Part shown: positions 42,039 through 62,400 of the stretch, piece by piece
Layout: every line of letters begins with the position of its first letter
Position numbering within the stretch: the first letter of the stretch is position 1
Origin: a bacterium
GTDB taxonomy: Bacteria > Patescibacteriota > Patescibacteriia > UBA9570
Assembly: GCA_030698395.1 (NCBI GenBank)
Contig: JAUYKW010000005.1
Coordinates: 1 to 62,400, forward strand
Length of the DNA stretch: 62,400 nt
Direction of reading: 5' to 3'
Made by a program: the position numbers and the translations under genes
The notes under the pieces: model-generated
The model's database searches: none
What the model was told of the DNA's origin: nothing
The model's input: the letters and a program-made list of their open reading frames with translations, nothing else

Positions 42039-42407
42039 ATGAATGTACAAATCACCGGAAAAAACATGGATCTAACAGATCCAATCAAAGCATACGCTGA
42101 AGACAAGGTTGGTAATCTAATTCGCATGGATGAAAGAATCATTGATGCTCGTGTTACCTTAGAACATTTTCGTAAAGATCACACTGATTCATATAAAGCT
42201 ACAGCGCATGTTAGAGTGTCTCATGATGAACTACATTGCGATTATGAACATGCAGATGTCTATGCAGGAATCGATGGATTAAAGGATGAACTTGAACGAC
42301 AATTGAGAGATTTAAAAGGCAAGCAAAAAACAAAAGGCAGAAAAGCAGGTAGGATTAGAAGAAGTATGAAATCAATATTTGGTTGGAGGAACCGCGAAAA
42401 AAAATAG
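42039..42407 (+). CDS. hpf: Ribosome hibernation promoting factor / RaiA family (short form with basic tail)
   Basis: 122 aa. MNVQITGKNMDLTDPIKAYAEDKV is typical of S30AE/HPF. Confidence 0.88.
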   Translation: MNVQITGKNMDLTDPIKAYAEDKVGNLIRMDERIIDARVTLEHFRKDHTDSYKATAHVRVSHDELHCDYEHADVYAGIDGLKDELERQLRDLKGKQKTKGRKAGRIRRSMKSIFGWRNREKK

Positions 42408-47109: not shown

Positions 47110-47241
47110 GTGCCACGGAAAAATGACGAATGTGTTGATCTGGAAACTGACGAGATAGATGATGTCACTACCGATAGCTCCGGCTGCGGTGCTGGAGACG
47201 GTCTTTGGGAACGTCCCTCCGTGAATGGCTTTTCAGAATAA
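47110..47241 (+). CDS. Candidate 43-aa acidic Cys-containing peptide with a strong SD (speculative)
   Basis: GGAGG at 47101-47105, then GTG at 47110. Translation MPRKNDECVDLETDEIDDVTTDSSGCGAGDGLWERPSVNGFSE, stop at 47239-47241 inside a hairpin. Lies in a GC-rich island; no homology recognised. Confidence 0.25.
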   Translation: MPRKNDECVDLETDEIDDVTTDSSGCGAGDGLWERPSVNGFSE

Positions 47242-47249
47242 AAAAGCCG

Positions 47250-47258
47250 TGTTATCAT
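47250..47258 (+). promoter_or_regulatory. Extended -10 TGtTATCAT, 6 nt upstream of the ATG at 47265
   Basis: tgttatcat at 47250-47258. Confidence 0.45.
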
Positions 47259-47264
47259 ACATGC

Positions 47265-48653
47265 ATGAAAAAATACTTATTTCCCTTAGTCTTTTTGGCT
47301 TTTTTACCATTCTCAGCGTTTGCTGTAGATGAGATGAATCCAGAAGTACACATATTCGACAATAACCTTAATCAAACAAATTCATTTACCGTATTTGACG
47401 GGCAATTTAAAGGAGGATCAGACGTCGCTTTAGCAGATGTTGATGGTGATGGAGCTGATGAAATTATTGTAGCTGCTGGTAGAGGCGGTGGACCAATGGT
47501 ACAAATTTGGGAAGCTGATGGCAGATTGATTAGTCAGTTCTTTGTATACGAAGAATATATTCATACTGGTATAAAGGTTGCAGCTGGAGATTTAGACGGA
47601 GATGGCAAAGCAGAAATTGTTACTGGAACAGAATTTGGAGGTGGTCCACATGTTCGAGTTTTTGATGCGAGCGGAAATGTACAATATACTCCTGGATTTT
47701 TTGCTTTTGATCAAGCATTTCGAGGGGGTGTTGATATTACAGTCGGAGACTTTAGTGGAAATGGAAGAGCGGAGATTGCTGCGTCAGCTGGGCCAAGTGG
47801 AGCACCCCACGTGCGTTTGTTTGATAGATTTGGTAATTATTTAGGAGCAGATTTTAGACCCTTTGCAGATGATAATAGAGGCGGAGTTGCATTAGCAACA
47901 GCCAATGTAGATGGTGGTGACGATGATGAATTGGTTATGTCTATTCAGGCTGCGGGAGAAGGTTGGGTAAAAGTTTATAAAAAGGACGGTACAATAGTAG
48001 GGGAATGGAAGAATTTTGATGGTTTATATACTGGAGTAACTATTGGAGCAGGCGATGTAGATGGGGATGGCAAAGATGAAATTGCTGTTACTCCTCGCCA
48101 TAACGCAGGTCCTCAAGTAGTGTTTTTTGAAGGTTATGGTCAGCAATTATCAAACTTTTTTGCTTATAATGATGACTTTAGAGGTGGTTTGCGAATAGCA
48201 GGTGGAGATCTTGATGGCGACGGAACGGATGAATTTGTCACAGTGCCAGGAAAAAATCGTTCTCAAGGAAGAGCTGATTTTATCAGATACATTGAAACTG
48301 ATATTTCAGATCAAACTACTAGAGTTTATGAATATGGAGAACTTATTCGAGAGTTTAGGGTTTCAACGGGTATTGCAAGATATCCTACACCGTTGGGTGA
48401 ATATAAAGTAACTCAGAAAATTTATAATAAAGATTATACCTGGAATTACGGAGAAAATCATCCAGATAATTATGATTTAAAAGATGTGAAATGGAATTTG
48501 CGATATAATGGGCCATTTCATTTACATTATGCTTATTGGCATAACAACTTTGGTCATCCAATGAGTCATGGTTGTACAAACATTGATCGGTGGAACGCAG
48601 AGTGGCTATATAACTGGGCGAATGTAGGAGATCCTGTTATCAATGTTCAATAA
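47265..48653 (+). CDS. FG-GAP/VCBS-like beta-propeller fused to an L,D-transpeptidase (YkuD) domain, copy 2
   Basis: Start taken at ATG 47265 (MKKYLFPLVFLAFLPFSAFA signal peptide); the track's 47205 start is a TTG. Six propeller repeats and the YkuD motif HYAYWHNNFGHPMSHGCTNID. Confidence 0.85.
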   Translation: MKKYLFPLVFLAFLPFSAFAVDEMNPEVHIFDNNLNQTNSFTVFDGQFKGGSDVALADVDGDGADEIIVAAGRGGGPMVQIWEADGRLISQFFVYEEYIHTGIKVAAGDLDGDGKAEIVTGTEFGGGPHVRVFDASGNVQYTPGFFAFDQAFRGGVDITVGDFSGNGRAEIAASAGPSGAPHVRLFDRFGNYLGADFRPFADDNRGGVALATANVDGGDDDELVMSIQAAGEGWVKVYKKDGTIVGEWKNFDGLYTGVTIGAGDVDGDGKDEIAVTPRHNAGPQVVFFEGYGQQLSNFFAYNDDFRGGLRIAGGDLDGDGTDEFVTVPGKNRSQGRADFIRYIETDISDQTTRVYEYGELIREFRVSTGIARYPTPLGEYKVTQKIYNKDYTWNYGENHPDNYDLKDVKWNLRYNGPFHLHYAYWHNNFGHPMSHGCTNIDRWNAEWLYNWANVGDPVINVQ

Positions 48654-49271: not shown

Positions 49272-51062
49272 ATGACAACTAGACAAAAATTATGGCTTTC
49301 AATTCTTGGGATTGTAGTGCTAGCAGTACTATCTGGGGTTGTTGATTATCCTAAAGGGCCGGATATTACTTGGAAGGGAGATATGGTACGAGAACTTAAG
49401 GTTCATCTTGGTTTAGATTTGCAAGGTGGAACTTCTTTGGTGTATGAGGCTGATTTATCAAATATAACAGAAGGTGAAGAACAGGAAGCAATGGCTGGTA
49501 TCAGAGATGTCTTAGAACGTCGGGTTAATGCTTTTGGAGTGTCTGAGCCGTTAGTGCAAACTAATAGAGCGGGTGATTCATGGAGAGTATTAATAGAATT
49601 ACCAGGAATTACTGATATCAATAGAGCAGTAGAAGAAATTGGAGAAACTCCTTTGCTTGAGTTTAAAACAGAAGGAGCCACTGAACTTTCAGAAGAACAA
49701 CTGGCATCCATTAGGAAGGTTAATGAGGAAAGCAAGGTAACAGCTCAAGCAATATTAGATCGTGTACAAGGTGGGGAGGATTTTTCAGAGATAGCGATTG
49801 CAGAAAGTGTTGATACTGTTTCTGGTGCAGAAGGCGGAGATTTAGGCTATTTTGCAAGGGGAGATATGGTTCCTGAATTCGAAGACGTTGCTTTTGCTGG
49901 AGAGGTTGGAGCAGTGATTCCAGAGTTAGTTGAAACTGAATTTGGTTTTCATATTATAAGAGTAGATGATAAAGCAATAGGAAATCCAGATGAGTTGAAT
50001 TCACAGGATGAAGCTGAAGTAAGTGAAGAAAACGTTGAATCACCAGAAGAAGTTTCAGTTGTTGAGAATACACCAGCGGATGCAGTTGCTATTGAAGATG
50101 CAGAGAATAATACAGACGTTGATAGTGAGAGTAATGCTGAAGAAGTAGTGCGGGCATCTCATATTTTAATTGGAAAAGTATCAGAAAATGCTGAAGATTA
50201 TGGAATTCAGTATGAAAACACTGAGTTAACGGGTAAACAGTTAAAAAGAGCAGATGTAGTATTTGATCAAAATACTACTGCGCCAATCGTATCATTATCA
50301 TTTGATAGTGAAGGATCCAAGTTATTCGAACAAATTACTTCAGATAATATTGGTAAAACTATCGCTATTTATTTGGATGGCGTAGCTATTAGCACTCCAG
50401 TCGTGAATCAGGTTATTTCAGGTGGGGAAGCGGTGATAGAGGGAAATTTTGATATTGAAGAAGCTAGAACATTATCAAGACGTTTAAATGCGGGTGCTTT
50501 GCCTGTGGATATAAATTTGGTAAACCAAAGAAACATTGGTCCAACATTGGGTGAAGAGGCGATACAACGTAGTGTTGTTGCTGGTCTATTAGGAGTAATA
50601 ATACTGGCATTCTTCATGGTTGCTTACTATCGATTACCAGGCTTAGTTGCAGTTGTTGCATTAAGCATATATGGATTAGTTTTATTAGCTATATTTAAGC
50701 TGTGGCCAATCACGTTAACATTATCTGGTGTTGCTGGATTCATCTTATCCTTAGGAATAGCCGTTGATGCTAATGTTTTAATATTTGAGCGTTTAAAGGA
50801 AGAGCTGCGTAATGGTAAATCTCTAGAGAAAGCAATAGATGATGGCTTTAAGAGAGCATGGCTATCGATTAGAGATTCAAATATGTCATCGTTAATTACT
50901 TGTTTAATTTTAATTTGGTTTGGTACGTCCGTTATTAAAGGATTTGCAATTACTTTATCTATTGGTATTGTTTTGAGTATGTTTTCAGCTATCACAATAA
51001 CTCGCAACATTCTTAAAATTGTTCCAATAAAAAATACTAGATTATTTGGTGTAAAAAGATGA
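49272..51062 (+). CDS. secD: Protein translocase subunit SecD with an inserted parvulin-type PPIase-like domain
   Basis: 596 aa. LGLDLQGGTSL, P1-domain motifs and 5 C-terminal TM helices. Residues ~155-233 read GEDFSEIA...GGDLGYFARGDMVPEFEDVAF...TEFGFHIIRV (parvulin core). Confidence 0.9.
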   Translation: MTTRQKLWLSILGIVVLAVLSGVVDYPKGPDITWKGDMVRELKVHLGLDLQGGTSLVYEADLSNITEGEEQEAMAGIRDVLERRVNAFGVSEPLVQTNRAGDSWRVLIELPGITDINRAVEEIGETPLLEFKTEGATELSEEQLASIRKVNEESKVTAQAILDRVQGGEDFSEIAIAESVDTVSGAEGGDLGYFARGDMVPEFEDVAFAGEVGAVIPELVETEFGFHIIRVDDKAIGNPDELNSQDEAEVSEENVESPEEVSVVENTPADAVAIEDAENNTDVDSESNAEEVVRASHILIGKVSENAEDYGIQYENTELTGKQLKRADVVFDQNTTAPIVSLSFDSEGSKLFEQITSDNIGKTIAIYLDGVAISTPVVNQVISGGEAVIEGNFDIEEARTLSRRLNAGALPVDINLVNQRNIGPTLGEEAIQRSVVAGLLGVIILAFFMVAYYRLPGLVAVVALSIYGLVLLAIFKLWPITLTLSGVAGFILSLGIAVDANVLIFERLKEELRNGKSLEKAIDDGFKRAWLSIRDSNMSSLITCLILIWFGTSVIKGFAITLSIGIVLSMFSAITITRNILKIVPIKNTRLFGVKR

Positions 51063-51970
51063 AAAAGCAAGTAACCGAAGAAAAATTATTCAATATCCTA
51101 GGTACTAGAAAGATTTGGTATACAATATCTAGTGTAATGATTATCGCAACTTTCATTGCATGGATAGCCTTCGGTTTTAATTTAGGTATTGATTTTACTG
51201 GTGGATCATTGATGCAGGTGAAGTATCCTGATGTAGCGCCATCATCTGCTGAAATTGCGGATCAGTTATCAGGGTTAGATTTATCCGAGGTAGTAGTTCA
51301 ACCATCTGACGAGACAACTGTTATTCTAAAAGTGCCGTTTGTGAGCAATGAACAGAGGCAGGAAATTCTATCAACTTTAGGTGAAGGCGTTGTAGAAGAG
51401 AGCTTCGAGTCTATTGGACCTACCATTGGTCAAGAATTACGTGAGAAGTCTATAACAGCCATTATTTTGGTGGTGATAGCCATTATAGTTTACGTTGCAG
51501 TAGCGTTTCGTAAGGTTTCGCAGGGTCCGGTGCCATCATGGGCTTTTGGAGTTTCAGCAATTATAGCTTTATTGCATGATATTTTGATTACACTTGGTGT
51601 GTTCCTTGTGCTGGGTCATTATTTTGGAGTGGAAATAAATGTAATGTTTATTACGGCATTGCTTACAATACTTGGTTTTTCAGTTAATGATACTATAGTT
51701 GTGTTTGATCGTATTAGAGAGGGTTTACGACGCAGTCAGCAAGAAAATTTCGAAGGTGTTATCAATGAAAGTATTAATCATACTATGATGCGTTCATTAA
51801 ATACTTCAATTACAACTTTAATCGTGTTGTTTGCACTATATTTATTCGGAGGAGAGACAATTAAATACTTTGTATTGGCATTGATAATTGGTATTACTGC
51901 TGGTACATATTCTTCTATCTTTATTGCTAGTCCATTGTTATTATTATGGCAAAAAGTTCTTAAACGATAG
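51059..51970 (+). CDS. secF: Protein translocase subunit SecF
   Basis: 303 aa. IDFTGGS motif and a SecD/F 6-TM core. 4-nt overlap with secD. Confidence 0.9.
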   Translation: MKKQVTEEKLFNILGTRKIWYTISSVMIIATFIAWIAFGFNLGIDFTGGSLMQVKYPDVAPSSAEIADQLSGLDLSEVVVQPSDETTVILKVPFVSNEQRQEILSTLGEGVVEESFESIGPTIGQELREKSITAIILVVIAIIVYVAVAFRKVSQGPVPSWAFGVSAIIALLHDILITLGVFLVLGHYFGVEINVMFITALLTILGFSVNDTIVVFDRIREGLRRSQQENFEGVINESINHTMMRSLNTSITTLIVLFALYLFGGETIKYFVLALIIGITAGTYSSIFIASPLLLLWQKVLKR

Positions 51971-52015
51971 AAAAGAGAAGATTTCAAGAAAAGGAGTCAA
52001 TAAATTTACTAATGT

Positions 52016-52039
52016 TAGCCAAAATAGTGGCTATTTTTT
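52016..52039 (+). terminator. Intrinsic terminator after secF
   Basis: tagcca (52016-52021), loop aaatag, tggcta (52028-52033), then T6 (52034-52039). Confidence 0.6.
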
Positions 52040-52087
52040 GTTATGTTGATGAACCTTAGTTTGGGCGTGAATTGTTCTACCATATAA

Positions 52088-52116
52088 TTGACAGTTTGTA
52101 AAAGTTATGCTATACT
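52088..52116 (+). promoter_or_regulatory. Near-consensus promoter TTGACA-17-TATACT heading the 52.1-62.0 kb operon
   Basis: ttgaca at 52088-52093, 17-nt spacer, tatact at 52111-52116. About 46-nt leader to the ATG at 52163. Confidence 0.65.
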
Positions 52117-52162
52117 ACGAGAAGTAATAACAGATACACTTAATTGATAACTCTATTATTCT

Positions 52163-53302
52163 ATGTCAATAAATGACGCAACATCAGCTGGTGGGGGTTC
52201 TATTTTGGATAAAGTAATCGCAAGCAAGGAAGATCAAGAGAAACGTGACTTTGATCCCTCAGAAGTTATAAATCAACTATTAAAAACAATCTCAGATAAA
52301 GAAGCCGATGTATTACGGCGACGATTTGGATTGGGTGGAAAGGCGAAGGAAACATTAGAAGCAATTGGTAATTCGTATAATGTAACTAGAGAGCGAGTAA
52401 GACAAATTGAGAATCTTGCTGTAAAGAAAATTAAAGAGCATTCTAGTTTTGTAAATATGGTAAAGCCTGTAGAGCATGTGGTATTAACTGTGCTGGAGGA
52501 GAATGGGGGAATTATGAACGAGGCACATCTATTAGAAGAACTATTTACAGTTGGTAGATCAAAAAGTGATGATCAGGCAGTATTGTTTATGATTTCAGAG
52601 TTATTCGACTTTCGTTTTACAAAAGTAGGACCAAATGCCAAATTTGAGAAATCTTGGCAAGCTAAAACAGCAGATTTAGATTTTGTTATAAAAACAATTG
52701 AAATGCTAATAGACCTTATCAAAGAAGAAGATCAGCCAATGGAGCTGACGGTTTTGTACAACAGGGTGAAAGAGCGGGAATTTTATAAATTGAATGCCGA
52801 GAATTTAAATCGACAAATTATAACATCTTATTTACAAGTGAGTAAGAAAATAGCAGTAAATCCTTTCGGTGAGTATGGTTTGCGATCTTGGGGTAGTGTG
52901 ATGCCACGTAGAATGAATGACAAAATTTATCTCGTCTTGAAAAAAATGGGCAAACCTATGCATTTTGTTGATATTGCAAAACAAGTTTCTGAAGTGTTTA
53001 ACAAGGAAGCGTATCCGCCTACTGTGCATAACGAATTAATTTTGAATAAGCATTATGTGTTAGTTGGGAGAGGAATTTATGCACTTAAGGAATGGGGTTA
53101 TAAAAAAGGTGTAGTAGCTGATGTGATAATTGATGTGATGCGTAAAAGAGGGAACCCAATGCAACGAGATGAAATTGTTGATGCGGTTTTGAAGGAGCGG
53201 ATAGTAAAGAAGAACACTATTCATTTAGCACTTACTAATCGAGAGACATTTATTAAATTATCTGATGGGCGGTTTACTTTAAAGGAATCGATCAGCGAGT
53301 AG
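52163..53302 (+). CDS. Sigma-70 region-4 HTH protein with a C-terminal HARE-HTH-like domain (no sigma regions 2/3)
   Basis: 379 aa. DKEADVLRRRFGLGGKAKETLEAIGNSYNVTRERVRQIENLAVKKIK is a textbook sigma70 region 4.2. The C-terminus MHFVDIAKQVSEVF...VLVGRGIYALKEWGY resembles the HARE-HTH of the RNAP delta subunit. Confidence 0.7.
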   Translation: MSINDATSAGGGSILDKVIASKEDQEKRDFDPSEVINQLLKTISDKEADVLRRRFGLGGKAKETLEAIGNSYNVTRERVRQIENLAVKKIKEHSSFVNMVKPVEHVVLTVLEENGGIMNEAHLLEELFTVGRSKSDDQAVLFMISELFDFRFTKVGPNAKFEKSWQAKTADLDFVIKTIEMLIDLIKEEDQPMELTVLYNRVKEREFYKLNAENLNRQIITSYLQVSKKIAVNPFGEYGLRSWGSVMPRRMNDKIYLVLKKMGKPMHFVDIAKQVSEVFNKEAYPPTVHNELILNKHYVLVGRGIYALKEWGYKKGVVADVIIDVMRKRGNPMQRDEIVDAVLKERIVKKNTIHLALTNRETFIKLSDGRFTLKESISE

Positions 53303-53309
53303 AAAAATC

Positions 53310-55019
53310 ATGCCACCAATTTTCTACGAAATTATTGCAGAATACGGCAATAACCCTTTCCAGGCGATGTGGTTTTTATTTTCGCATGGTTTAGGCCTGA
53401 TTACTATTGTGCCAATTATGATTTGGTATGGTTGGGCAGGTTGGAGGCAATATACATTTGAACGTACTAAGCAGAGAAGAAATCATTTGATGTTTAAAAT
53501 TGATGTTCCACAGTTGAACGAACAAAGCATGAAAGCAGTGGAGCAAATCTTCGTTCATATATACGGTGGTGCACTAGATTCGCCAAATAATTTAGTAGAA
53601 ACATATTGGGATGGATTTTGGCAGGATAATTTTTCTTTTGAAATTGTGAGTAAAGGCGGGTATATATCATTTTATGTACGAGCGCCTGATTATCATAAAG
53701 ATTTAGTACAAGCTGCATTTTATGCTCAATATCCAGATGCAATTCTAACTGAGGTAGAGGATTATACAGAAGAAATGACCGTTGATATGATTATGGAGGG
53801 TAAAGTAAAAGTATGGGGCTCTGAGTTTCTTTTAGAAAGGGATGATACAATGCCGATTAGATCATGGCCACAATGGGAACATAGCTTGGTGGGTAGAGCG
53901 GTAGATCCTTTGGCGTCAGTTTTAGAAGTAATGAGTAGACTAGATCCTGGTGAAGAATGGTGGTTTCAGATATTAGCTCAACCGGCTGATTTGCCATCGT
54001 TTAAGCTTAGGGTACAGGCTGAAATTGATAAAGTAGTAGAGGCAGAGGGATTTAATTCTGGAGGAAAAGATTGGGTTGATAAGATAATTCAATTGCCACT
54101 TTCACTTTTAGAAACAATTCATGACTCTGTAGTGTCTGGAGAATGGTCTGATGCAGATAGTTCTAAACCAGTAACTGTAGAACAAAGAAAGAGACTCACA
54201 ACGCCAGAACGTGTATTTGTTGAGGAGTTAGATAATAAAAGGTCCCGTTGGGTATTTAAGAGCAAAATTAGATTTATGTATTTTGCTGAACCAAAAATTT
54301 ATAGTGAAGCAAAGGGTAGACGTGGTTTATTAGGGGCTTTGGCTCTGTATCGATTTATTAATACTTTTGTTGAGGGCATGATAACTAGAGTTGCAAAAAA
54401 TGCTCTTAAAATGAGATGGTTTTTTCCGGATTTAAGGGTACGTTGGCGGGCTCGGAGAATGTTTTGGGCGTATCGTTCTCGAGATATGCAACGTGGTGAA
54501 CATGATGGATTTATTTTAAATACTGAAGAATTAGCGAGTCTTTTTCATTTTCCGCAAATCGAAGTTCGTGCGCCTTATGTTTCTAAATCTTCTAGCCGTG
54601 GCGTGGAACCACCAACTCAGTTAGATTTTGATGATAGGCGATATGTTGATGAAGATAGAGTAATTCCAACAGTATCTGTAGAATCTGGTCAACAACAAAT
54701 ACAAAGTGATATTCCTGTTGCCAATATTGTTCCAGAACAACCATTACCTGGATATCCAGAACAACCACTAGCACAACAGCAGGTGTATTCCGGGCAACAG
54801 CCACAAACGGTTCAACAACAACCTCCTGTGCAATATCAGCAACCTTTAGATCAGCAAACATTGTCACATGCACAACAATCACCGGCTTATCCTTCAACTT
54901 CATATTCACAGCAACAACCAACAATGCAACAGCCTGCACCAAACTCAGCTGTGTCCGTGGAATTAGATGATGATATTTCAGATAAGGGAGCACCTCCCAG
55001 TAATTTACCAGTAGTATAA
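53310..55019 (+). CDS. Membrane-anchored protein of unknown function with a Q/P-rich tail (putative partner of the downstream ATPase)
   Basis: 569 aa. N-terminal TM segment (WFLFSHGLGLITIVPIMIWYGWAGW), a large soluble domain, then about 110 aa of Q/P-rich low complexity. 2-nt gap to the ATPase gene. Confidence 0.6.
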   Translation: MPPIFYEIIAEYGNNPFQAMWFLFSHGLGLITIVPIMIWYGWAGWRQYTFERTKQRRNHLMFKIDVPQLNEQSMKAVEQIFVHIYGGALDSPNNLVETYWDGFWQDNFSFEIVSKGGYISFYVRAPDYHKDLVQAAFYAQYPDAILTEVEDYTEEMTVDMIMEGKVKVWGSEFLLERDDTMPIRSWPQWEHSLVGRAVDPLASVLEVMSRLDPGEEWWFQILAQPADLPSFKLRVQAEIDKVVEAEGFNSGGKDWVDKIIQLPLSLLETIHDSVVSGEWSDADSSKPVTVEQRKRLTTPERVFVEELDNKRSRWVFKSKIRFMYFAEPKIYSEAKGRRGLLGALALYRFINTFVEGMITRVAKNALKMRWFFPDLRVRWRARRMFWAYRSRDMQRGEHDGFILNTEELASLFHFPQIEVRAPYVSKSSSRGVEPPTQLDFDDRRYVDEDRVIPTVSVESGQQQIQSDIPVANIVPEQPLPGYPEQPLAQQQVYSGQQPQTVQQQPPVQYQQPLDQQTLSHAQQSPAYPSTSYSQQQPTMQQPAPNSAVSVELDDDISDKGAPPSNLPVV

Positions 55020-55021
55020 AT

Positions 55022-57514
55022 ATGGCAAACGAAAAAAAAGATATCACAGTATTTGCAGAAACAAATTTCCGTAATATGCGTCGTAAATTTGGTATTAAAC
55101 CAGATGATCGTAGACGTCATATGTATGTGGTAGGTAAAACGGGTATGGGAAAATCTACTTTATTGGAGAACATGATTATCGATGATATCCGAAAAGGTAG
55201 AGGAGTTGCAGTTGTAGATCCGCATGGTGATTTAGCTGAACAAATTTTAGCCTTTATTCCAAAGACAAGAATCAATGATGTAATTTATTTCAATCCAGCT
55301 GATACACAATATCCGGTAGCATTTAATATTTTAGAAAGTGTCGGTGATGATTATAAACATTTAGTTGCATACGGATTGGTTGGAGTTTTTAAGAAGATCT
55401 GGGCAGACTCTTGGGGTCCTAGAATGGAATATATTCTTACAAATACTATATTAGTGTTGTTAGATTATCCAGGTAGTACATTGTTAGGAGTTATGCGGGT
55501 GTTGGTAGACAAGTCTTATCGAAAAAAGGTTGTGGCTAAAGTAACAGATCCAGTCGTAAAAACATTTTGGGCAGACGAATTTTCAAATTATTCTGAAAAA
55601 TTTAGAACAGAAGCTATTGCGCCTATTCAGAATAAAGTTGGTCAATTTTTATCGTCATCTATTATTAGAAATATTGTTGGACAATCCAAGAGTACAATTG
55701 AGATGCGACAAATTATGGATGAGCAGAAGATTTTAATTATGAATCTTTCGAAAGGTAGAGTTGGTGAAGAAAACTCAGCTTTATTAGGCGCTATGATGAT
55801 TACTAAACTTCAGATTGCAGCCATGAGTAGAGTTGATATACCAGAAAAGGATCGAATTGATTTTTATTTATATGTTGATGAATTTCAGAACTTTGCTACA
55901 GATAGTTTTGCTGGCATATTATCAGAAGCTAGAAAATATCGTTTGAATTTAATAATGGCCCACCAATATATTGAACAGCTTGGTGATGAAGTAAAGTACG
56001 CTGTGTTTGGAAATGTGGGTACTATGCTTATATTTCGTATAGGTGCAAATGATGCGTTGGAGATAGAGCCAGAATTTGGTCCTCAATTTGTGGCGCAAGA
56101 CATTGTAAATTTAAATAAATATAATTTTATTATTCGTTTAATGATTGATGGAATTGCTACTGAACCTTTTTCTGCGATTGGCTTACCCCCGGTTTCCAGT
56201 GAAGAAGCGAGTAGCGCAGATAAAGTTATTAAAGTGTCTCGTGAGCGTTATGCACGCCCCCAGGAGATTGTAGAGGATAGAATTATTCGATGGAGTGGTG
56301 TTGAGATAATCAAAAAGCCTGTGGAAGAAAAGAAGGATTCTGAACCTGATGCAGATGATCAAGATCAAGATGAGATGGATGATGATCTTTCTTCTTTTGT
56401 GGATCAAACAACCGAACGGCCACTAGAAACAGAACAGGATGAATCAGTTTTTGATGCACCAGTTAATACAGCTGGAATGATTCCGGATTTGCCAACGGCG
56501 GAGGAAATAGCATCAAGTTCTATAGCTACATCTCAAAATAATGGATCTGAAATAATAACTGAATCAGTTGAAATGGAACAGCCGCAGGGTGTAAATATTG
56601 GTTCTCCTGATACACCATTATTTGCACCGGCTAATTTTATACCAGGCGAGGATGAATTTATTCCAGCAACAATTCCAGATGAACCTAAAGAGGTTATTCA
56701 GGAAGTTTCTATTAAGAAAGCAGAGGTACAAATAGTTCCAGACGCTATGAAAGTAGAAGATAAGCCGGTGCAGGAAGTAGTTGTTGATTTAGAAGAAGAT
56801 GTAGATGGAGTGTTGAGTGATAAGAAAAAAATTAATTTTATACAAACTGATTTATCAGACAAAGATGAGTCAGCAGTTGATTCAAATAAGCCTGTAGTAT
56901 CATTATTTGATCTTAGACACGGCAATGCTCCAACTGTTAATTTTTCAGGTGGATCAGTAAAAGATTCTAAAGCAAAGAATCGTGATAACAAACAGGATGA
57001 ACAAAAAAATAGAGATACAACTGAGCAAAGTAAATCAGGACAGGATAAACGTGTTGATAATACAGTGCATAAGGAAGAAACAGAGAGAAAGAATGATAGA
57101 CAAAAAGAAGTTAGAGAAGATATAAAAATAAATAATCAAGAAAAACCTAATCAGCAAAGCAATGTAGCTAGTCAGGATCAAAGAAATGGTAGTGAATCTT
57201 CATCTGTGGAGCAATTACAACCAAAGAAGAAAAGAAAGCGGAATCGAAAGCGGAATCGGAATAGGGAATCAGAGTCAATACAGGAACCAAGACAGCAAAA
57301 TAATAGAGATCAGAAATCTTCTGAAGATCCGAAGCCTATAAATCAGTCGCAACAGCAAGCTGGAGATCGTCAGCCTTCACAGTCACAGCACTCTCAGGGT
57401 TCTCAATTAGTTCCAGAGAATAAACAAGAAAAGAAGCATGAAGATAATCAATCAGATAAATCATCTGATGATGGAGATGCTACTACAAAAATTTCATTAG
57501 ACGATTTTATTTAA
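55022..57514 (+). CDS. TraD/VirD4/FtsK-HerA-superfamily P-loop ATPase lacking TM helices, with a ~400-aa disordered tail
   Basis: 830 aa. Walker A GKTGMGKST (nt 55133-55159), Walker B FYLYVDEFQNF, ARKYRLNLIMAHQY (coupling-protein-like). The tail runs acidic, then S/T/P-rich, then K/R/Q/N-rich (KKKRKRNRKRNRNR). Confidence 0.75.
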   Translation: MANEKKDITVFAETNFRNMRRKFGIKPDDRRRHMYVVGKTGMGKSTLLENMIIDDIRKGRGVAVVDPHGDLAEQILAFIPKTRINDVIYFNPADTQYPVAFNILESVGDDYKHLVAYGLVGVFKKIWADSWGPRMEYILTNTILVLLDYPGSTLLGVMRVLVDKSYRKKVVAKVTDPVVKTFWADEFSNYSEKFRTEAIAPIQNKVGQFLSSSIIRNIVGQSKSTIEMRQIMDEQKILIMNLSKGRVGEENSALLGAMMITKLQIAAMSRVDIPEKDRIDFYLYVDEFQNFATDSFAGILSEARKYRLNLIMAHQYIEQLGDEVKYAVFGNVGTMLIFRIGANDALEIEPEFGPQFVAQDIVNLNKYNFIIRLMIDGIATEPFSAIGLPPVSSEEASSADKVIKVSRERYARPQEIVEDRIIRWSGVEIIKKPVEEKKDSEPDADDQDQDEMDDDLSSFVDQTTERPLETEQDESVFDAPVNTAGMIPDLPTAEEIASSSIATSQNNGSEIITESVEMEQPQGVNIGSPDTPLFAPANFIPGEDEFIPATIPDEPKEVIQEVSIKKAEVQIVPDAMKVEDKPVQEVVVDLEEDVDGVLSDKKKINFIQTDLSDKDESAVDSNKPVVSLFDLRHGNAPTVNFSGGSVKDSKAKNRDNKQDEQKNRDTTEQSKSGQDKRVDNTVHKEETERKNDRQKEVREDIKINNQEKPNQQSNVASQDQRNGSESSSVEQLQPKKKRKRNRKRNRNRESESIQEPRQQNNRDQKSSEDPKPINQSQQQAGDRQPSQSQHSQGSQLVPENKQEKKHEDNQSDKSSDDGDATTKISLDDFI

Positions 57515-57522
57515 ATATATAG

Positions 57523-59193
57523 ATGGATAATCAAATAGATTCGAACGTTTGTGCTTTGTGTGGGGGATTATTTGGAATAACTGTTCAAGAGAAAGAGCTA
57601 TTATTTAAATTTGGAGTGCCCAATCCAAAACTTTGTTCTAATTGTAGATTGCAGAGACGTTATGCGATGCGAAACGAGCGAGTTTTTTATAATAGAAAAT
57701 GTGATCTTACAGATCAACCAATTGTATCGATTTTTCACGAGGAAAGTCCCTATACCGTCTATAGTCAGGATGCTTGGTGGTCTGATGACTGGGATCAATT
57801 TAAATTTGGAAAGGACTATGATTTAACTCGTCCTTTTTTTGAACAATTAAAGGAGCTGCAATTACAGCAACCTCGAATTGCCTTGTTAGCAAAAGATAGT
57901 GATAACTCTGAATATACAAATCATTCTGCTCATAATAAAGATTGCTATATTGGATTTTCTTTAGTCAATTGTGAAAAAGTGTTATATGGATACTTTTGTT
58001 TTGATGTTAGCTATTTAGTTGATTGTACGAATATGTTTAATAAATCTGAACTTTGTTATGAATGCTTTAATTGTCATCAATGCTATGGATGTGTGTATAC
58101 AGTTGAAAGTCGAGGTTGTACTAATGTATGGTTTTCATATGATATGAGTGGATGCGAAGACTGTTTCTTGAGTTGGAATTTGCGGAATGCAAAGTATTGT
58201 TACATGAATGAACAACTAACCAAAGAAGAATATGAAAAGAAGGTTGCAGAATTTAAAGTTTTATCTGATTCAGATAGACGTAAGTTAATAGAGCAATGGC
58301 GAGATAATATTAAAAATAAAGCAATTCATCAATCTAGTCGTTTTATTAATACAGAAAATTCTACTGGAGATTATCTAGCAAATTGTACAAATGTAAATAA
58401 TGGCTTTGTGGTAACGAATGGTGAGAATAGTGCTAATTTATTATATTGCGTAGATGTTAAAGATGTGATGGATTGTTGTAATACAGCTCCGGCTGAATTT
58501 TGCTATGAAATGACTGGTACTATAAATAATAATCATTCTAAATTTATTAATTATTCATATGACAACGATTTTATTGAGTACTGTGATCATGTGTTTAATT
58601 CTCAATATCTATTTGGTTGTGTATGCTTAAACAAACAAAAATATTGTATTTTAAATAAGCAGTATACAGAATCTGAATATGAAAGATTAAAAGTACAGAT
58701 TATTGCACAAATGAAAAAAGATGATGAGTATGGTGAGTTTTTTCCTTTTTCTTATTCTCCTTTTGCATATAATGAAACATTAGCTAATGATTTATTTCCT
58801 CTTACCCCAGAGCATGCAGAAACACTAGGTGCTAGATGGCTAGATGAGCGAAAAGAGGGTGTTAATCGTAATGCCGTAATAGATGCGAACGATCTTCCAG
58901 AAATGATTACGGAAGTGGATAATTCAATTCTTGAAAAAACAATTATTTGTGAAGATTCTGGAAAACCATTTCAGATTAAATCACAAGAGTTGGAAATATA
59001 TAGAAAATTAGGAGTACCTTTACCACGTAAACACCCTGAAGTTAGGTATCAGGATAGATTAACATTGCGTACCCCATTAGAATTACACGATAGGGAATGT
59101 AGTAAGTGTGGGATAAGTCTTATATCCACCTATAGTTCAACAAGACCAGAAACAGTTTATTGCGATAAATGTTATAAAGAAGTAATATATTAA
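57523..59193 (+). CDS. Cys-rich multi-zinc-ribbon protein, paralog A (unknown family)
   Basis: 556 aa with 32 Cys (hand count). N- and C-terminal CxxC...P.P..C..CR...R...C..C modules and a duplicated central array of Cys-containing ~20-aa repeats. Confidence 0.7.
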   Translation: MDNQIDSNVCALCGGLFGITVQEKELLFKFGVPNPKLCSNCRLQRRYAMRNERVFYNRKCDLTDQPIVSIFHEESPYTVYSQDAWWSDDWDQFKFGKDYDLTRPFFEQLKELQLQQPRIALLAKDSDNSEYTNHSAHNKDCYIGFSLVNCEKVLYGYFCFDVSYLVDCTNMFNKSELCYECFNCHQCYGCVYTVESRGCTNVWFSYDMSGCEDCFLSWNLRNAKYCYMNEQLTKEEYEKKVAEFKVLSDSDRRKLIEQWRDNIKNKAIHQSSRFINTENSTGDYLANCTNVNNGFVVTNGENSANLLYCVDVKDVMDCCNTAPAEFCYEMTGTINNNHSKFINYSYDNDFIEYCDHVFNSQYLFGCVCLNKQKYCILNKQYTESEYERLKVQIIAQMKKDDEYGEFFPFSYSPFAYNETLANDLFPLTPEHAETLGARWLDERKEGVNRNAVIDANDLPEMITEVDNSILEKTIICEDSGKPFQIKSQELEIYRKLGVPLPRKHPEVRYQDRLTLRTPLELHDRECSKCGISLISTYSSTRPETVYCDKCYKEVIY

Positions 59194-59195
59194 GT

Positions 59196-59618
59196 ATGAA
59201 GAAATTATTATTACTTACCTTAATATTTTTTACGGGATGTTCATTAGCTGGAACTGATCCAGCAACCTCTGTATTATATTCTGGTGACATTACTGGAGAC
59301 GATGTGTTAGAAATAGTTACAATAGTTGAAAGTGACGTTACTGTATCGGAAGAATTTAGTGAAACTTATCCATTTACTTTCAATGAACTGTATGTGGAGT
59401 CTGAGGATAGAACTTTATTAACAATTGATAGTAATGGGGTTACTGTAGAAAATGGAGATAGTGTAAGAGCTCAAGTATCAACCCAGGCTGGTTATGCTAT
59501 CCAATTAGGAGAAAAGGATTTTATGTATGTTGTTCAAATTGATGAATTTGGATCTCCAGTTAGTGAACCATTAACAATTAACTGGGATATTAGTACTGCC
59601 GGTTGGAAAATGAAATAG
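59196..59618 (+). CDS. Small lipoprotein
   Basis: 140 aa. MKKLLLLTLIFFTGC signal peptide with a lipobox-like FTGC. Confidence 0.65.
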   Translation: MKKLLLLTLIFFTGCSLAGTDPATSVLYSGDITGDDVLEIVTIVESDVTVSEEFSETYPFTFNELYVESEDRTLLTIDSNGVTVENGDSVRAQVSTQAGYAIQLGEKDFMYVVQIDEFGSPVSEPLTINWDISTAGWKMK

Positions 59619-59619
59619 C

Positions 59620-61260
59620 ATGGCTATAACATGTACCGATTGTGCTAAGGAATTTGTACTAGATGGGCAAGATAAGGAATTGTTGTCTAGACTTAATGTA
59701 CCTAATCCGACCAAATGCCCAGTTTGCAGACTACAAAGAAGATTAGCATATTGGACGTTTGGCAAATTTCGTCAGCGTCAGGATGATATTACTGGAAAAA
59801 TGATTATTTCTGTATTTGGATCAGATGTAAGATTTCCAGTTACTGATAGAAGTAATTGGCATTCTGACAATTGGGTTGCACCCAGCATGGAGATCGATTT
59901 TAGTCGGTCTTTTTTTGAGCAATTAAAAGAGTTGCAAGAACAGACACCGCATTTTCATATGTTGGGAGATGATAAAAATGTAAACTGTGATTATTCGGAT
60001 GATGTATGGAGTTGTAAGGATTGTTACCATTGTCGATCTATGTACAAGGTAGAAAATTCGCATTTTATTTATAGAGTAATTGAAGCTAGAGATTGTTTGG
60101 ATTGTACTTATTCTTATAATCTTGAAAATTGCTATGACAACACTTATTGTTTTAAAAATTATCAGTTATTTTATTCATTAGATTCGAGAGATTGTACCGA
60201 TAGTTATTTTTTGTATGATTGCAGAGGGGTGAAGAATTCTTTTATGTGTTGGAATTTACGAAATAAAGAATATTGCATTAGGAATAAACAATATTCTGCG
60301 GAAGAGTATAATAAAGAAATTCAGAAGATTAAATTGAATTCTTGGCAGACTATTAAGGAGTTGAAAAATGAGTTTACAGAACATCTTCAAACTGATGCGA
60401 TTCATAGAGTAACTTACCAAAATAAATGTGAAGAATGTGAAGGTAATTATTTAAATAATTGTAAAAATATAACAAATGGTTTTTTTGTGGAGGATTCTGA
60501 GAATTGCCAAAATATTTTTAGATCTATAGAAAATAAAGATACTCTAGATGTTACCGGAGCATTAGCTGAAGAGTTGAGTTACGAAACAATCCAATCAGCT
60601 GAGTTATACAATGTGAAGTTTGCCGCGATGTCTATCAGATGCAGAGATTCTGAATACCTGGATCAGTGCATAGATTTGGATCAATGTTTTGGCTGTGTAG
60701 GATTAAAGAAAAAGAAATATTCAATATTAAATAAACAATATTCAGAGAATGATTATAAAAATTTGAAGGATAAGATAATTTCTAAGATGAAAGCGGATGG
60801 TGAGTATGGAGAATTTCTACCATACAACATGATGTATACGGGATATAACCAAAGTTTTGCCAACTATTATTTTCCACAAACAAGAGATAATATTTTAAAT
60901 AAAGGTGGTTATTGGGACGAGATAGAATCATCCGAAGAGGGGAGCAGATCAGCTGTTCAGCTTTCCGACATAGTAGAGAATTATGATGAAGTTGTGGGAA
61001 AAGTATTATCTTGTGAAGTTACGAAAAGAGATTTTAAAATTGTCCCTCAGGAAATTGAATTTTACAAGCAACATAAAATTCCGGTACCAAGGATTCATCC
61101 AGATGAACGCAATCTACAACGCTTCCGAATGATGCCAGGCATTAAGCCTTATGTCATTAAATGTAACGCGTGTAACGATGATCTTCTAACTTATTATCCA
61201 CCAGAGTGGGGATATAAAAAAATACTATGTGATACATGTTATATGGGTTGGATTTATTAA
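59620..61260 (+). CDS. Cys-rich multi-zinc-ribbon protein, paralog B
   Basis: 546 aa with 29 Cys (hand count). Colinear with paralog A (shared FFEQLKELQ, WNLRN..YC..N.Q....EY, GEYGEF, terminal C..CY). Confidence 0.7.
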   Translation: MAITCTDCAKEFVLDGQDKELLSRLNVPNPTKCPVCRLQRRLAYWTFGKFRQRQDDITGKMIISVFGSDVRFPVTDRSNWHSDNWVAPSMEIDFSRSFFEQLKELQEQTPHFHMLGDDKNVNCDYSDDVWSCKDCYHCRSMYKVENSHFIYRVIEARDCLDCTYSYNLENCYDNTYCFKNYQLFYSLDSRDCTDSYFLYDCRGVKNSFMCWNLRNKEYCIRNKQYSAEEYNKEIQKIKLNSWQTIKELKNEFTEHLQTDAIHRVTYQNKCEECEGNYLNNCKNITNGFFVEDSENCQNIFRSIENKDTLDVTGALAEELSYETIQSAELYNVKFAAMSIRCRDSEYLDQCIDLDQCFGCVGLKKKKYSILNKQYSENDYKNLKDKIISKMKADGEYGEFLPYNMMYTGYNQSFANYYFPQTRDNILNKGGYWDEIESSEEGSRSAVQLSDIVENYDEVVGKVLSCEVTKRDFKIVPQEIEFYKQHKIPVPRIHPDERNLQRFRMMPGIKPYVIKCNACNDDLLTYYPPEWGYKKILCDTCYMGWIY

Positions 61261-61284
61261 TTAGTAGGTGATAAAGGTGTTAAA

Positions 61285-62013
61285 ATGACGGAACAATTCG
61301 AAAAATTTAAACCGGAAGATATTTTTATGATGCCAAAGCACGTAACAGATGTTTTGGTTAATGGCATAACACTTCCAGATGCTGAAGTTGTATACCAAGA
61401 TGATGATATCGTCGTGCAACGATTAGCAAGATTGTCTGATTATATTAGAGGTGTGGGAAATGTAAATTTGAATATTGATTTTCGATGTTCTACCCAAGAG
61501 TATCCGACAGAATTAGAGACTTTAGAATTTCGTTATGATTTGCCTAGCGAAGACGGTGAGCCGATTGCTGACTTGGGGTTCTACATGATGAATGAAGGTG
61601 AATATGATCTTGGACATCGTTATGTTTCCCCAGAGTATAGATATAGCGGGGGTAAGGCTAGCGGTATTGGTTCACAACTTTTTGCGCGAGCTGAATTAGC
61701 ATTTCAGGAATTGGCAAATCGTACACAAGAGTCGGTTGTGATTTATATAGATTTAGCACAATTGAGCGTGTTGAATTGGGCTTTAAAAAATGGTTTTGAA
61801 CCAGAAGAAGAAAGTACTGAATTGATGAAACAAATATTGGAACATCCTGAAGATTTTGATTTGGAAGATATTGTAGATAAAGTAGACGGAGTTACTAAAG
61901 AGCAGTTTATATTTAGAAAAGACACTAGGAAGAGAGATCGTCATACTGCAGAACGAGTTTTGCTATCAAAGACTATTCAACCAGAAGAAAATTCACAAGC
62001 TTTGCTTGAATAG
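61285..62013 (+). CDS. GNAT-like acetyltransferase-fold protein (tentative)
   Basis: 242 aa. HRYVSPEYRYSGGKASGIGSQLFARAELAFQEL resembles GNAT motif A (acetyl-CoA P-loop-like xxGxG). Otherwise unrecognised. Confidence 0.4.
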   Translation: MTEQFEKFKPEDIFMMPKHVTDVLVNGITLPDAEVVYQDDDIVVQRLARLSDYIRGVGNVNLNIDFRCSTQEYPTELETLEFRYDLPSEDGEPIADLGFYMMNEGEYDLGHRYVSPEYRYSGGKASGIGSQLFARAELAFQELANRTQESVVIYIDLAQLSVLNWALKNGFEPEEESTELMKQILEHPEDFDLEDIVDKVDGVTKEQFIFRKDTRKRDRHTAERVLLSKTIQPEENSQALLE

Positions 62014-62125
62014 GTGTAAGTTATATTTTGATTTTTATGGTATAGATGCAGTTTACATCTCAAGCTTATTTTATAGCTAGTATTAGCCAAGAAATCAGCA
62101 TCAGGCGAAATAAATCAAAAACCAT

Positions 62126-62154
62126 TTGACTACGTTTAACTCTAAGGATAAGCT
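62126..62154 (+). promoter_or_regulatory. Promoter TTGACT-17-TAAGCT, 6 nt upstream of the ATG at 62161
   Basis: ttgact at 62126-62131, taagct at 62149-62154. Confidence 0.4.
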
Positions 62155-62160
62155 TTTATC

Positions 62161-62400
62161 ATGAAAAAACAATGTAAAAAATGTTCAATAGAGTTTAACA
62201 TCTCTAACAAGGATAAAGAGTTCTACACCAAAATAAGCGCTCCGGAGCCTTCTATGTGTCCGGATTGTCGGATGCAAAAAAGAATGGCTTATCGTAATGA
62301 GCGTGTTTTGTATCCCTCAACTTGTGGTATGTGTAAAAAAAGCATGTTATCGATGTATAAGGAGGAAGATGGATTTTTAGTTTATTGTTTAGATTGTTGG
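62161..62400 (+). CDS. Cys-rich zinc-ribbon protein, paralog C (3' end outside window)
   Basis: MKKQCKKCSIEFNISNKDKEFYTKISAPEPSMCPDCRMQKRMAYRNERVLYPSTCGMCKKSMLSMY...YCLDCW has the same N-terminal module as paralogs A and B. The ORF is still open at the window end. Confidence 0.65.
   Translation, partial: MKKQCKKCSIEFNISNKDKEFYTKISAPEPSMCPDCRMQKRMAYRNERVLYPSTCGMCKKSMLSMYKEEDGFLVYCLDCW

Follow-up and report, generated by a model that had tools for sequence, protein, structure and literature searches.

A split type IV coupling protein in a conserved chromosomal gene block of Patescibacteria

The first 62,400 nucleotides of contig JAUYKW010000005.1 (GenBank assembly GCA_030698395.1; Patescibacteriota, Patescibacteriia, UBA9570), referred to below as the window, contain seven consecutive co-directional genes, designated here g1 to g7, that follow the secD and secF genes. 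The g2 and g3 products together correspond to one protein, split in two, of a type IV coupling protein (T4CP) subfamily that is found in monoderm and archaeal conjugative elements and in SPO1-like phages. The unsplit form found there is a single polypeptide of ∼800 to 900 amino acids (aa) that combines a membrane anchor, a domain resembling the VirB4 N-terminal domain, and a motor of the TrwB/VirD4 class. In the candidate phyla radiation (CPR), the g2-g3 pair is chromosomal, highly conserved, and located within a secDF-g1-g2-g3 block, which in Paceibacteria and in the ABY1 clade of the window continues with genes for tandem Cys-rich paralogs of ∼550 aa that are flanked by zinc fingers. The predicted C-terminal finger of this Cys-rich family is shared with the g3 tail in ∼40% of the g3 orthologs. 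With moderate confidence, the block can be interpreted as a domesticated membrane-anchored coupling motor that works with helix-turn-helix and zinc-finger adaptors.

A coupling protein divided between two genes

The g3 protein contains the Walker A motif GKTGMGKST (starting at residue 38), the Walker B motif YLYVDEFQNF, and ARKYRLNLIMAHQY, all of which had been read correctly in a first-pass annotation made from the nucleotide sequence alone. That annotation had also described the motor as lacking transmembrane helices and had suggested that the 569-aa g2 product could supply the anchor, and this suggestion holds up well: hydropathy analysis reveals no hydrophobic segment in g3 and a single one in g2, at approximately residues 19 to 40, and in phages and plasmids the counterpart of g2 forms the N-terminal half of a protein that continues into the motor. 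In Pfam, g3 matches TrwB_AAD_bind (E = 1.8e-9; 37.5 bits against the cut-off of 20.5) and DUF87 (E = 4.4e-6) and gives no AAA_10 or CagE_TrbE_VirB match. The best PDB relatives of the profile of g3 orthologs are TrwB (E = 1.4e-9) and DotL (E = 1.7e-6); the structure of the VirB4 C-terminal domain (4ag5) is reached at E = 0.11. The two proteins align side by side along phrog_5156 (824 positions), g2 at positions 76 to 406 and g3 at positions 407 to 809 (E = 4e-64 for g3), and the members of phrog_5156 include gp27.4 of SPO1, a single protein of 906 aa, and gp156 of phage G.

The g2 protein consists of the membrane segment (residues ∼19 to 40), an alpha/beta domain (residues ∼57 to 436), and a disordered linker rich in Gln and Pro that ends in APPSNLPVV. 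Precomputed annotation assigns PF26449.1 to g2 and to most of its 120 listed homologs; no paper on PF26449/DUF8128 was found in the literature searched. The AlphaFold2 (AF2) model of g2 has a predicted local distance difference test (pLDDT) score above 90 over most of residues 1 to 436, and the 10 top Foldseek matches of this model are all to TrwK/VirB4 of R388 (E = 6.5e-5 to 7e-4; probability, 1.0; template-modeling [TM] scores low). Neither the g2 sequence nor the g2 profile retrieved anything meaningful from the PDB sequences, and there was no sequence-level match to VirB4. The large N-terminal domain of the g2-type proteins thus looks VirB4-like at the level of the predicted model.

The slot that the family occupies in conjugation systems is seen most clearly on a plasmid of Embleya (Actinomycetota), which encodes an 812-aa protein with a g2-like N terminus and a g3-like motor as its C-terminal half. 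Its N terminus aligns with the g2 profile over residues 24 to 401 (hhalign probability, 95.6; E = 1.1e-8). The gene cluster comprises TrbL/VirB6-like, PrgI, genuine VirB4 (AAA_10/TraC), fused, Replic_Relax, and NlpC/P60 proteins, and the fused protein stands between the VirB4-like ATPase and the Replic_Relax protein. Since a separate VirB4 is encoded beside the fused homolog, the g2/g3 family fills the slot of the coupling protein rather than that of VirB4. On a 65-kb Bacillus subtilis plasmid, a 913-aa homolog annotated as “DUF87” adjoins the tcpD and tcpE genes. Taken together, phrog_5156, SPO1, and the Embleya and B. subtilis plasmid homologs identify the g2/g3 pair as a coupling-protein subfamily, a membership that holds at the domain level. 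The motor is not an undescribed family, and the orphan status of such genes in Patescibacteria is already reported (PMC12102498).

Like g3, the characterized T4CPs (TrwB of R388, VirD4, TraD, and DotL/IcmO) are P-loop motors of the FtsK/HerA superfamily, and the fused g2-g3 homologs adjoin genes for relaxase-type proteins and VirB4 on plasmids. DotL also has a long C-terminal tail following the motor, as does g3. The tail of DotL binds small adaptor proteins, including the zinc-binding DotN. In other respects, the CPR proteins depart from the classical ones. The anchor of a T4CP is part of the same polypeptide, whereas here it resides on the separate g2 protein; the N-terminal part of a T4CP consists of two transmembrane helices, whereas the g2/g3 family has a domain of ∼380 aa that resembles the N-terminal region of VirB4. 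The g2 and g3 genes are chromosomal and nearly universal in CPR, with no relaxase or mating-pair-formation genes nearby in the 62-kb window, and in place of the relaxosome proteins that are the partners of T4CPs, their neighbors encode a sigma4/HARE-HTH protein and Cys-rich proteins. VirB4/TrwK resembles the fused g2-g3 form in that an N-terminal domain precedes a RecA-like motor, each of ∼400 aa, but it differs in the motor itself, as the Pfam and 4ag5 comparisons above indicate. The architecture of SPO1 gp27.4, phage G gp156, and the 913-aa B. subtilis plasmid protein is the same, g2-like and then g3-like, but these proteins are fused and are encoded on mobile elements; no function is reported for them in their records. 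The fused relatives from SPO1, phage G, and B. subtilis are 24 to 28% identical to g3.

As judged by eye, the terminal APPSNLP of the ABY1 g2 proteins corresponds to the N-terminal APPPPELP of the Paceibacteria g3 proteins, which suggests that the split point differs between ABY1 and Paceibacteria. The tail of g3 in the window is free of Cys and of low complexity, with an acidic part followed by a part rich in Lys, Arg, Gln, and Asn that contains KKKRKRNRKRNRNR.

Some further features of these proteins were noted in passing. The long g2 tail (positions 54620 to 55019) is disordered or of low complexity and rich in Gln and Pro, the g3 tail ends in ISLDDFI, and the short terminal motifs of both tails recur in the orthologs. 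A stand-alone, motor-only homolog of 395 aa is encoded on a Sulfitobacter plasmid (NZ_CP081110, positions 99994 to 101181; locus L173), an alphaproteobacterial replicon where it is surrounded by recombinase and transposase genes. With 40.7% identity to g3 (E = 3e-97), it is far closer than the other non-CPR matches and may represent a recent transfer from a CPR-like source.

Conservation of the block across the CPR

Related loci were collected in three sets, namely, 80 loci of the ABY1 type (query, the g3 motor of the window), 80 from Paceibacteria (query, a g3 paralog from Staskawiczbacteria), and 6 from Doudnabacteria (query, a g2 protein of that group), for a total of 166. The ABY1 and Paceibacteria scans each detected relatives of the g3 motor in more than 500 species. 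The motors are 68 to 84% identical within ABY1 (80 species), 69 to 93% identical within Paceibacteria, and ∼45% identical between the classes. The order secD-secF-g1-g2-g3 recurs among the loci of ABY1, Paceibacteria, and Doudnabacteria. In ABY1, g2 is found within two open reading frames (ORFs) upstream of g3 in 46 of the 61 testable loci, usually in the order g1-g2-g3; all six Doudnabacteria loci have the order secD-secF-(one gene)-g1-g2-g3; and the typical arrangement in Paceibacteria is a tight operon, secD-secF-g1-g2-(172-aa membrane protein)-g3, after which come three to six genes of the Cys-rich family. As far as the related loci are annotated, no relaxase or mating-pair-formation genes are present within 10 kb on either side.

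The abundance of such motors is known from previous work. VirD4-like genes have been reported in 2,918 of 3,035 (96%) Patescibacteria genomes, only 148 of them near virB4, and the authors had no explanation for them beyond raising the possibility of exaptation (PMC12102498). These orphan VirD4-like T4CPs, approximately two per genome and rarely near virB4, very probably represent the population of genes to which g3 belongs. The available portion of PMC12102498 does not mention the PF26449 partner, the sigma4/HARE-HTH neighbor, the tail finger, or the Cys-rich arrays, and the main text of the Cell 2023 transposon sequencing (Tn-seq) paper does not mention T4CPs.

Several variations on the common arrangement were observed. 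In a second setting of g3, the gene order is nrdD-nrdG-(96-aa membrane protein)-g3-glycosyltransferase-ftsB-like-carboxypeptidase-ftsE-ftsX (genes named from their translations; nrdD and nrdG are ribonucleotide reductase-like), and the motor is ∼70% identical to that of the window; this setting was found in loci L044, L046, L051, L052, L054, L059, L061, L064, L072, L074, L077, and L085. The 172-aa protein encoded between g2 and g3 in Paceibacteria has a single transmembrane segment, is conserved, and has no Pfam match (L107, positions 9458 to 9976; L110, positions 9451 to 9969; and equivalents). Many Paceibacteria loci (L087 to L166) contain two g3 paralogs, a short one, usually following g2, and a longer one with a tail zinc finger, usually apart from g2 and often amid Cys-rich genes. 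These two paralogs may be the approximately two T4CP homologs per genome counted in PMC12102498.

Given that relatives of g3 occur on plasmids, in SPO1-like phages, and in phage G, the block could be viewed as left over from an integrated conjugative element or a prophage; alternatively, it could be an antiphage defense system built around a HerA-like ATPase, as PADLOC reports weak matches to mads8 (E = 2.2e-10) and HerA, and g1 matches sigma region 4 of MzaA. Both versions are highly improbable. The family is nearly universal and vertically conserved at 68 to 93% identity, and its chromosomal position beside secDF is fixed in three classes. The GC content and GC skew of the block are the same as in the rest of the window, and the scans of the window revealed no integrase, relaxase, tRNA, or other defense components. 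Flanking attachment repeats, a patchy distribution among strains, and a phage resistance phenotype are likewise not seen here. The PADLOC and MzaA matches are confined to P-loop or sigma-4 segments. A defense ATPase of the HerA or mads type was accordingly considered and rejected: the likeness is at the domain level only, the partner genes are absent from the window, and the context is a housekeeping one.

The sigma region 4/HARE-HTH protein g1

The domains proposed for g1 in the first-pass annotation are all recovered by profile searches. Residues 39 to 92 match Pfam Sigma70_r4 (E = 3.6e-12), residues 317 to 375 match HARE-HTH (PF05066; E = 2.3e-11; 44.4 bits against the cut-off of 25.9), and residues 250 to 311 yield a second match of the HARE-HTH type (TIGR04567; 43.3 bits against the cut-off of 42); the middle region has no family match. 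Only 38 residues precede region 4, no sigma region 2 was found with Pfam or NCBIfam, and the NCBIfam sigma matches involve only C-terminal profile positions and are far under their cut-offs. Lacking region 2, g1 is not a sigma factor. The delta subunit of RNA polymerase has an N-terminal HARE-HTH domain followed by an acidic tail; this architecture is absent in g1, so that the two proteins share a domain without being orthologs. In three CPR classes, the g1 gene precedes g2-g3, and its product is predicted to be a DNA- or RNA polymerase-binding partner. Its domains are compatible with the previously proposed role of a DNA-binding recruiter.

The Cys-rich family and its link to the motor

The g4 and g6 proteins, with 32 and 29 Cys residues, respectively, are paralogs (35% identity; E = 2e-105), in agreement with the first-pass count of ∼30 Cys in each of two ∼550-aa proteins. 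They are not “giant,” as they had been called: the family is very uniform in length, and the best 150 matches are nearly all 520 to 600 aa long and aligned end to end. There are at least 3,311 homologs at 90% clustering and 6,039 clusters at 50% identity, and every named source organism belongs to a CPR lineage. Searches with g4 gave no match in the plasmid and phage collections and one partial match, at a contig end, in IMG/VR, indicating that this is not a family of mobile elements. The paralogs keep ∼40% identity across classes without domain shuffling. The g6 protein represents a different, old orthologous group and is 41 to 61% identical to specific paralogs in loci L003, L062, and L023. 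The third paralog, cut by the window end, starts with the same N-terminal CxxC...PxPxxCPxCRxQ(K/R)R module and has 6 Cys in 79 aa. No relevant report on Cys-rich or zinc-ribbon CPR families was found in the literature searched.

The g4 protein comprises an N-terminal treble-clef module, two Cys-rich segments (mostly short strands in the model) with helices between them, the conserved region ILNKQY..GE(W/Y)GEFFP..YNET, a C-terminal copy of the N-terminal module, and a zinc finger resembling half of a LIM domain. The modules at the N and C termini repeat each other within the protein (E = 2e-10), and in many family members they match the treble-clef families zf_Tbcl (PF13451) and zf_Tbcl_2 (PF23477). 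With g6, the zf_Tbcl score is 17.4 bits, under the cut-off of 24; with homologs P0037 and P0064, the zf_Tbcl_2 scores are 27.8 and 27.9 bits against the cut-off of 27. Among 37 family sequences, at least 90% retain the Cys residues at positions 10, 38, 526, 529, 547, and 550. The last finger is similar to the second finger of the CRP LIM domains (E = 2.8e-4); the likeness of g4 and g6 to LIM/treble-clef fingers (zf_Tbcl and zf_Tbcl_2) is at the domain level only. Judging from these sequence patterns, the Cys-rich proteins are predicted to bind zinc. The AF2 model of g4 (pLDDT, 83; predicted TM score [pTM], 0.85) retrieved no PDB match below E = 2.7 with Foldseek and only small zinc-ribbon fragments from BFVD (best E = 0.02), and the central ∼400 aa have no match in Pfam, PDB, or BFVD; therefore, no fold is assigned to the Cys-rich core.

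The Cys-rich family is linked to the motor by gene neighborhood and by a shared finger. Of the 78 Paceibacteria g3 genes with sufficient sequence downstream, 55 are followed within three ORFs by a Cys-rich gene; in ABY1, this holds for 9 of 54, most of them closely related to the window. In Staskawiczbacteria, a second g3 paralog lies inside the Cys-rich arrays (loci L003, L087, L089, and L092). A tail finger of the form CxxC-x(12-24)-CxxC is present in 76 of 194 g3 genes, and in locus L087 it corresponds to Pfam zf_Tbcl_2 (E = 5.8e-13). The motor-tail finger and the C-terminal finger of the Cys-rich proteins align with each other (hhalign probability, 91%; E = 1e-6), and zf_Tbcl_2 is found in both. 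Mutual exclusion of the tail finger and an adjacent Cys-rich array was also considered. The pattern is seen in ABY1 (16 and 8 in one row and 29 and 1 in the other; P = 0.007, uncorrected for phylogeny) and is absent in Paceibacteria (20 and 41; 3 and 14), and it was dropped as an argument.

An alternative explanation is that there is no system beyond g2-g3. In this view, g1, secDF, and the Cys-rich genes have unrelated housekeeping functions and stay together through gene order inherited in slowly rearranging, strand-biased CPR genomes, and the finger is a common, promiscuous module. Within ABY1, conserved synteny indeed extends upstream to secDF, a 200-aa gene, and two FG-GAP/YkuD genes. There is no Cys-rich gene near g3 in 45 of 54 ABY1 cases or in Doudnabacteria, solo Cys-rich genes are found elsewhere, and the treble-clef finger is only ∼35 residues long and resembles LIM halves. 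Inherited order nevertheless fits poorly with the retention of secDF-g1-g2-g3 between classes whose motors are ∼45% identical and in which the genes upstream of secD differ. It fits no better with the 55 of 78 Paceibacteria cases, which are far above chance for the copy number of the family (an estimate rather than a computed value), with the second motor paralog embedded in Cys-rich arrays, or with genes that overlap or are separated by gaps of 1 to 8 nucleotides (nt). This explanation is accordingly considered unlikely.

Another explanation, which is somewhat less doubtful and still improbable, is that g2/g3 is an ordinary coupling protein for a type IV secretion system (T4SS) encoded elsewhere and that the Cys-rich proteins are secreted effectors or effector chaperones involved in epibiotic host interaction. 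T4CP genes are often not located beside virB4, and a monoderm-type T4SS is present in most Patescibacteria (PMC12102498); outside the CPR, the nearest relatives are coupling proteins encoded within conjugation clusters. Tandem Cys-rich arrays have expanded beside the motor, as effector families often do, and the conserved C-terminal module of these proteins could serve as a recognition signal. However, the 148 VirD4-like genes near virB4 are few compared to the 2,918 of 3,035 genomes that carry such genes, and in S. epibionticum the t4cp homolog was reported to be nonessential and the T4SS genes essential, with exaptation raised by the authors themselves (same source). Furthermore, the Cys-rich paralogs are old, slowly evolving, and uniform in length, unlike typical effectors. 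They have no signal peptide and no transmembrane segment by hydropathy, and, being predicted zinc-binding proteins, they would be poor substrates for unfolded export.

The g5 and g7 genes

The two remaining genes show a different pattern of conservation. Homologs of g5 were found only in loci L007 and L008, directly 3′ of g3, i.e., in 2 of the 166 related loci, and g5 has no match in the family libraries. The lipoprotein label rests solely on the N-terminal motif MKKLLLLTLIFFTGC, which is present as described and fits a lipobox loosely (F-T-G-C). For g7, there are no homologs among 5.8 billion proteins or in the 166 related loci, and searches of PDB and the family libraries gave no relative and no family above the cut-off. 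The first-pass identification of g7 as a GNAT-like protein is rejected: with 14.4 bits (E = 0.05), the Acetyltransf_7 match stays under the cut-off of 27. With g5 restricted to a clade and g7 an ORFan, the conserved unit is g1-g2-g3 plus, in part of the radiation, the Cys-rich paralogs, rather than seven genes.

The first-pass annotation had instead combined the seven genes, those for the lipoprotein and the GNAT-like protein among them, into one lineage-specific, envelope-spanning machine for translocation or processing. The tight co-directional spacing behind one strong promoter-like site and the position of the g5 homologs directly 3′ of g3 in two close relatives speak for this model. Of the synteny that it predicted in related genomes, the g1-g2-g3 part recurs in three classes, whereas g5 and g7 do not follow. 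Nor is “envelope-spanning” supported, as the only membrane segment is in g2, the Cys-rich proteins have neither a signal peptide nor a transmembrane segment, and there is no channel-forming component. The poor conservation of g5 and g7 largely refutes the seven-gene model, and it is very unlikely to be correct.

A possible role of the block and its implications

In the preferred interpretation, that of a domesticated coupling motor with adaptors, g2 would anchor a hexameric g3 motor at the cytoplasmic membrane, and g1 and the Cys-rich proteins would act as cytoplasmic adaptors that bring a nucleic acid or nucleoprotein substrate to it. Such an adaptor role is modeled on the relaxosome accessory proteins TrwA and TraM and on the adaptors of the DotL tail in the classical coupling proteins. 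A function that originated in conjugation may have been exapted for housekeeping in CPR cells, where the handling of DNA at the membrane, be it uptake, transfer, or segregation, is the most likely role; g5 and g7 would be lineage-specific passengers. That DNA is the substrate of the g2/g3 machine appears less probable than the overall picture.

Several observations weigh against this interpretation. The g3 protein of the window itself has no zinc finger; Doudnabacteria and most of the sampled ABY1 loci have no Cys-rich gene within 10 kb of g3, and Cys-rich genes are also found alone (loci L001 and L004). The TM scores of the Foldseek matches between g2 and VirB4 are only 0.25 to 0.32. Approximately 12 ABY1 loci contain g3 without g1 or g2, in the nrdDG...ftsEX setting. 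The secDF genes are likewise in conserved order, and streamlined, strand-biased CPR genomes may keep gene order without functional coupling. The nonessentiality of the S. epibionticum t4cp homolog, reported in PMC12102498, would count here as well if that gene belongs to the same subfamily, and the function of the block and its substrate, be it DNA or protein, are inferred.

A bolder and distinctly more tentative proposal is that CPR bacteria turned a coupling ATPase into a core chromosomal machine, free of the T4SS channel, that moves or organizes DNA at the membrane and in which PF26449 with the VirD4-like motor, the sigma4/HARE-HTH subunit, and the paralogous zinc-finger proteins act together. 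If true, the machine would be of a new type, confined to the CPR radiation, and might serve, for example, to take up foreign DNA as a source of nucleotides or to handle the chromosome when cells divide.

The motor class and its orphan abundance in Patescibacteria (PMC12102498) are already known. No report was found in the literature searched on the split with PF26449, the sigma4/HARE-HTH partner, the tail finger, or the link to the Cys-rich family. The orphan VirD4-like genes thereby gain an anatomy that consists of the split partner PF26449, a fixed neighbor with DNA-binding domains, and a finger shared with a large family, and a vague remark on exaptation becomes a set of testable hypotheses on complex membership, docking of the finger on the motor, and DNA as the substrate. 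The Cys-rich proteins constitute a major CPR family to which no function is assigned in the records or the literature searched. A large share of bacterial diversity belongs to the Patescibacteria, whose conserved genes for the most part lack a known function.

Operon layout and the rest of the window

The features of the block are listed in Table 1. The ORFs and their coordinates agree with the first-pass description of seven co-directional genes, with intergenic gaps from g1 to g7 of 7, 2, 8, 2, 1, and 24 nt, and of a secF terminator followed by a near-consensus promoter.

Table 1. Features of the g1-g7 block and its flanks in the window
Feature	Position	Strand	Basis or remark
secD	49272-51062	+	Named from reading of the translation; upstream neighbor of the block
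secF	51059-51970	+	Named from reading of the translation; upstream neighbor of the block
Terminator-like hairpin with T-run, 3′ of secF	52016-52033	+	Sequence scan
Promoter-like site TTGACA-17-(TG)TATACT	52088-52116	+	11/12 consensus matches
g1, 379 aa	52163-53302	+	ORF with Sigma70_r4 and two HARE-HTH
g2, 569 aa	53310-55019	+	ORF; membrane segment, PF26449
g3, 830 aa	55022-57514	+	ORF; TrwB/VirD4-class motor
g3 motor domain, aa 1-433	55022-56320	+	TrwB_AAD_bind, DUF87, phrog_5156
g3 C-terminal tail, ∼400 aa	56321-57514	+	Sequence reading
g4, 556 aa, 32 Cys	57523-59193	+	ORF; Cys-rich family
g5, 140 aa, possible lipoprotein	59196-59618	+	ORF; N-terminal motif MKKLLLLTLIFFTGC
g6, 546 aa, 29 Cys	59620-61260	+	ORF; second Cys-rich paralog
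g7, 242 aa, ORFan	61285-62013	+	ORF; no homolog
Third Cys-rich paralog, 5′ end, cut by window end	62162-62400	+	Sequence

The promoter-like site upstream of g1 is the best plus-strand match of the promoter scan within positions 51900 to 62400. The total number of promoter-like sites (41, versus 44.4 in shuffled sequences) shows no excess, so that this is the only site that stands out. The secDF genes form a transcription unit apart from the g1-g7 block. The third Cys-rich paralog, said to have its own promoter, does begin where expected, but no plus-strand site between positions 62013 and 62162 passes the scan; by eye, TTGACT-17-TAAGCT can be recognized 5′ of the gene, with a −10 hexamer that matches at only 3 of 6 positions.

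The whole window is chromosomal housekeeping DNA with nearly every gene on the plus strand, and the closest named relatives are Kerfeldbacteria and other ABY1-type Patescibacteria. Its genes, as identified with Pfam, include pgk, eno, two cofactor-independent phosphoglycerate mutase (iPGM) genes, riboflavin genes, prs, recJ, glycosyltransferase genes, murJ, lepA, ftsW, murG, Mur ligase genes, murB, secA, and genes for two FG-GAP/YkuD transpeptidases. No integrase, relaxase, or VirB4 is encoded among the scanned ORFs of at least 150 aa in the 62.4-kb window, and the tRNA and Rfam scans of the window gave no match. Because of this housekeeping chromosomal context, the block is not a conventional T4SS or integrative and conjugative element, as had been concluded in the first-pass annotation.

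The GC skew is strongly positive in all 2-kb bins of the window (positions 1 to 62400) but one, which, with nearly all genes on the plus strand, suggests a long stretch of a single replichore with extreme leading-strand gene bias. The sole long minus-strand gene is a 901-aa ORF (positions 2937 to 5642) that has no Pfam match at E = 1e-4 and at which the GC and AT skews drop locally. The tandem, overlapping genes at positions 5943 to 7454 and 7448 to 9034 each encode a full-length iPGM (iPGM_N and Metalloenzyme), a duplication of a glycolytic enzyme that is unusual for a reduced genome. Three FG-GAP repeat proteins are encoded at positions 33737 to 35632, 45565 to 47001, and 47205 to 48653; two of them are tandem paralogs with a fused YkuD L,D-transpeptidase domain, located just upstream of secDF, and this pair is kept at the same position in the ABY1 relatives. 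Upstream of secA and overlapping its start is a 122-aa ORF (positions 42039 to 42407), the product of which, as read by eye from its sequence, presumably resembles a ribosome hibernation factor of the HPF/RaiA type.

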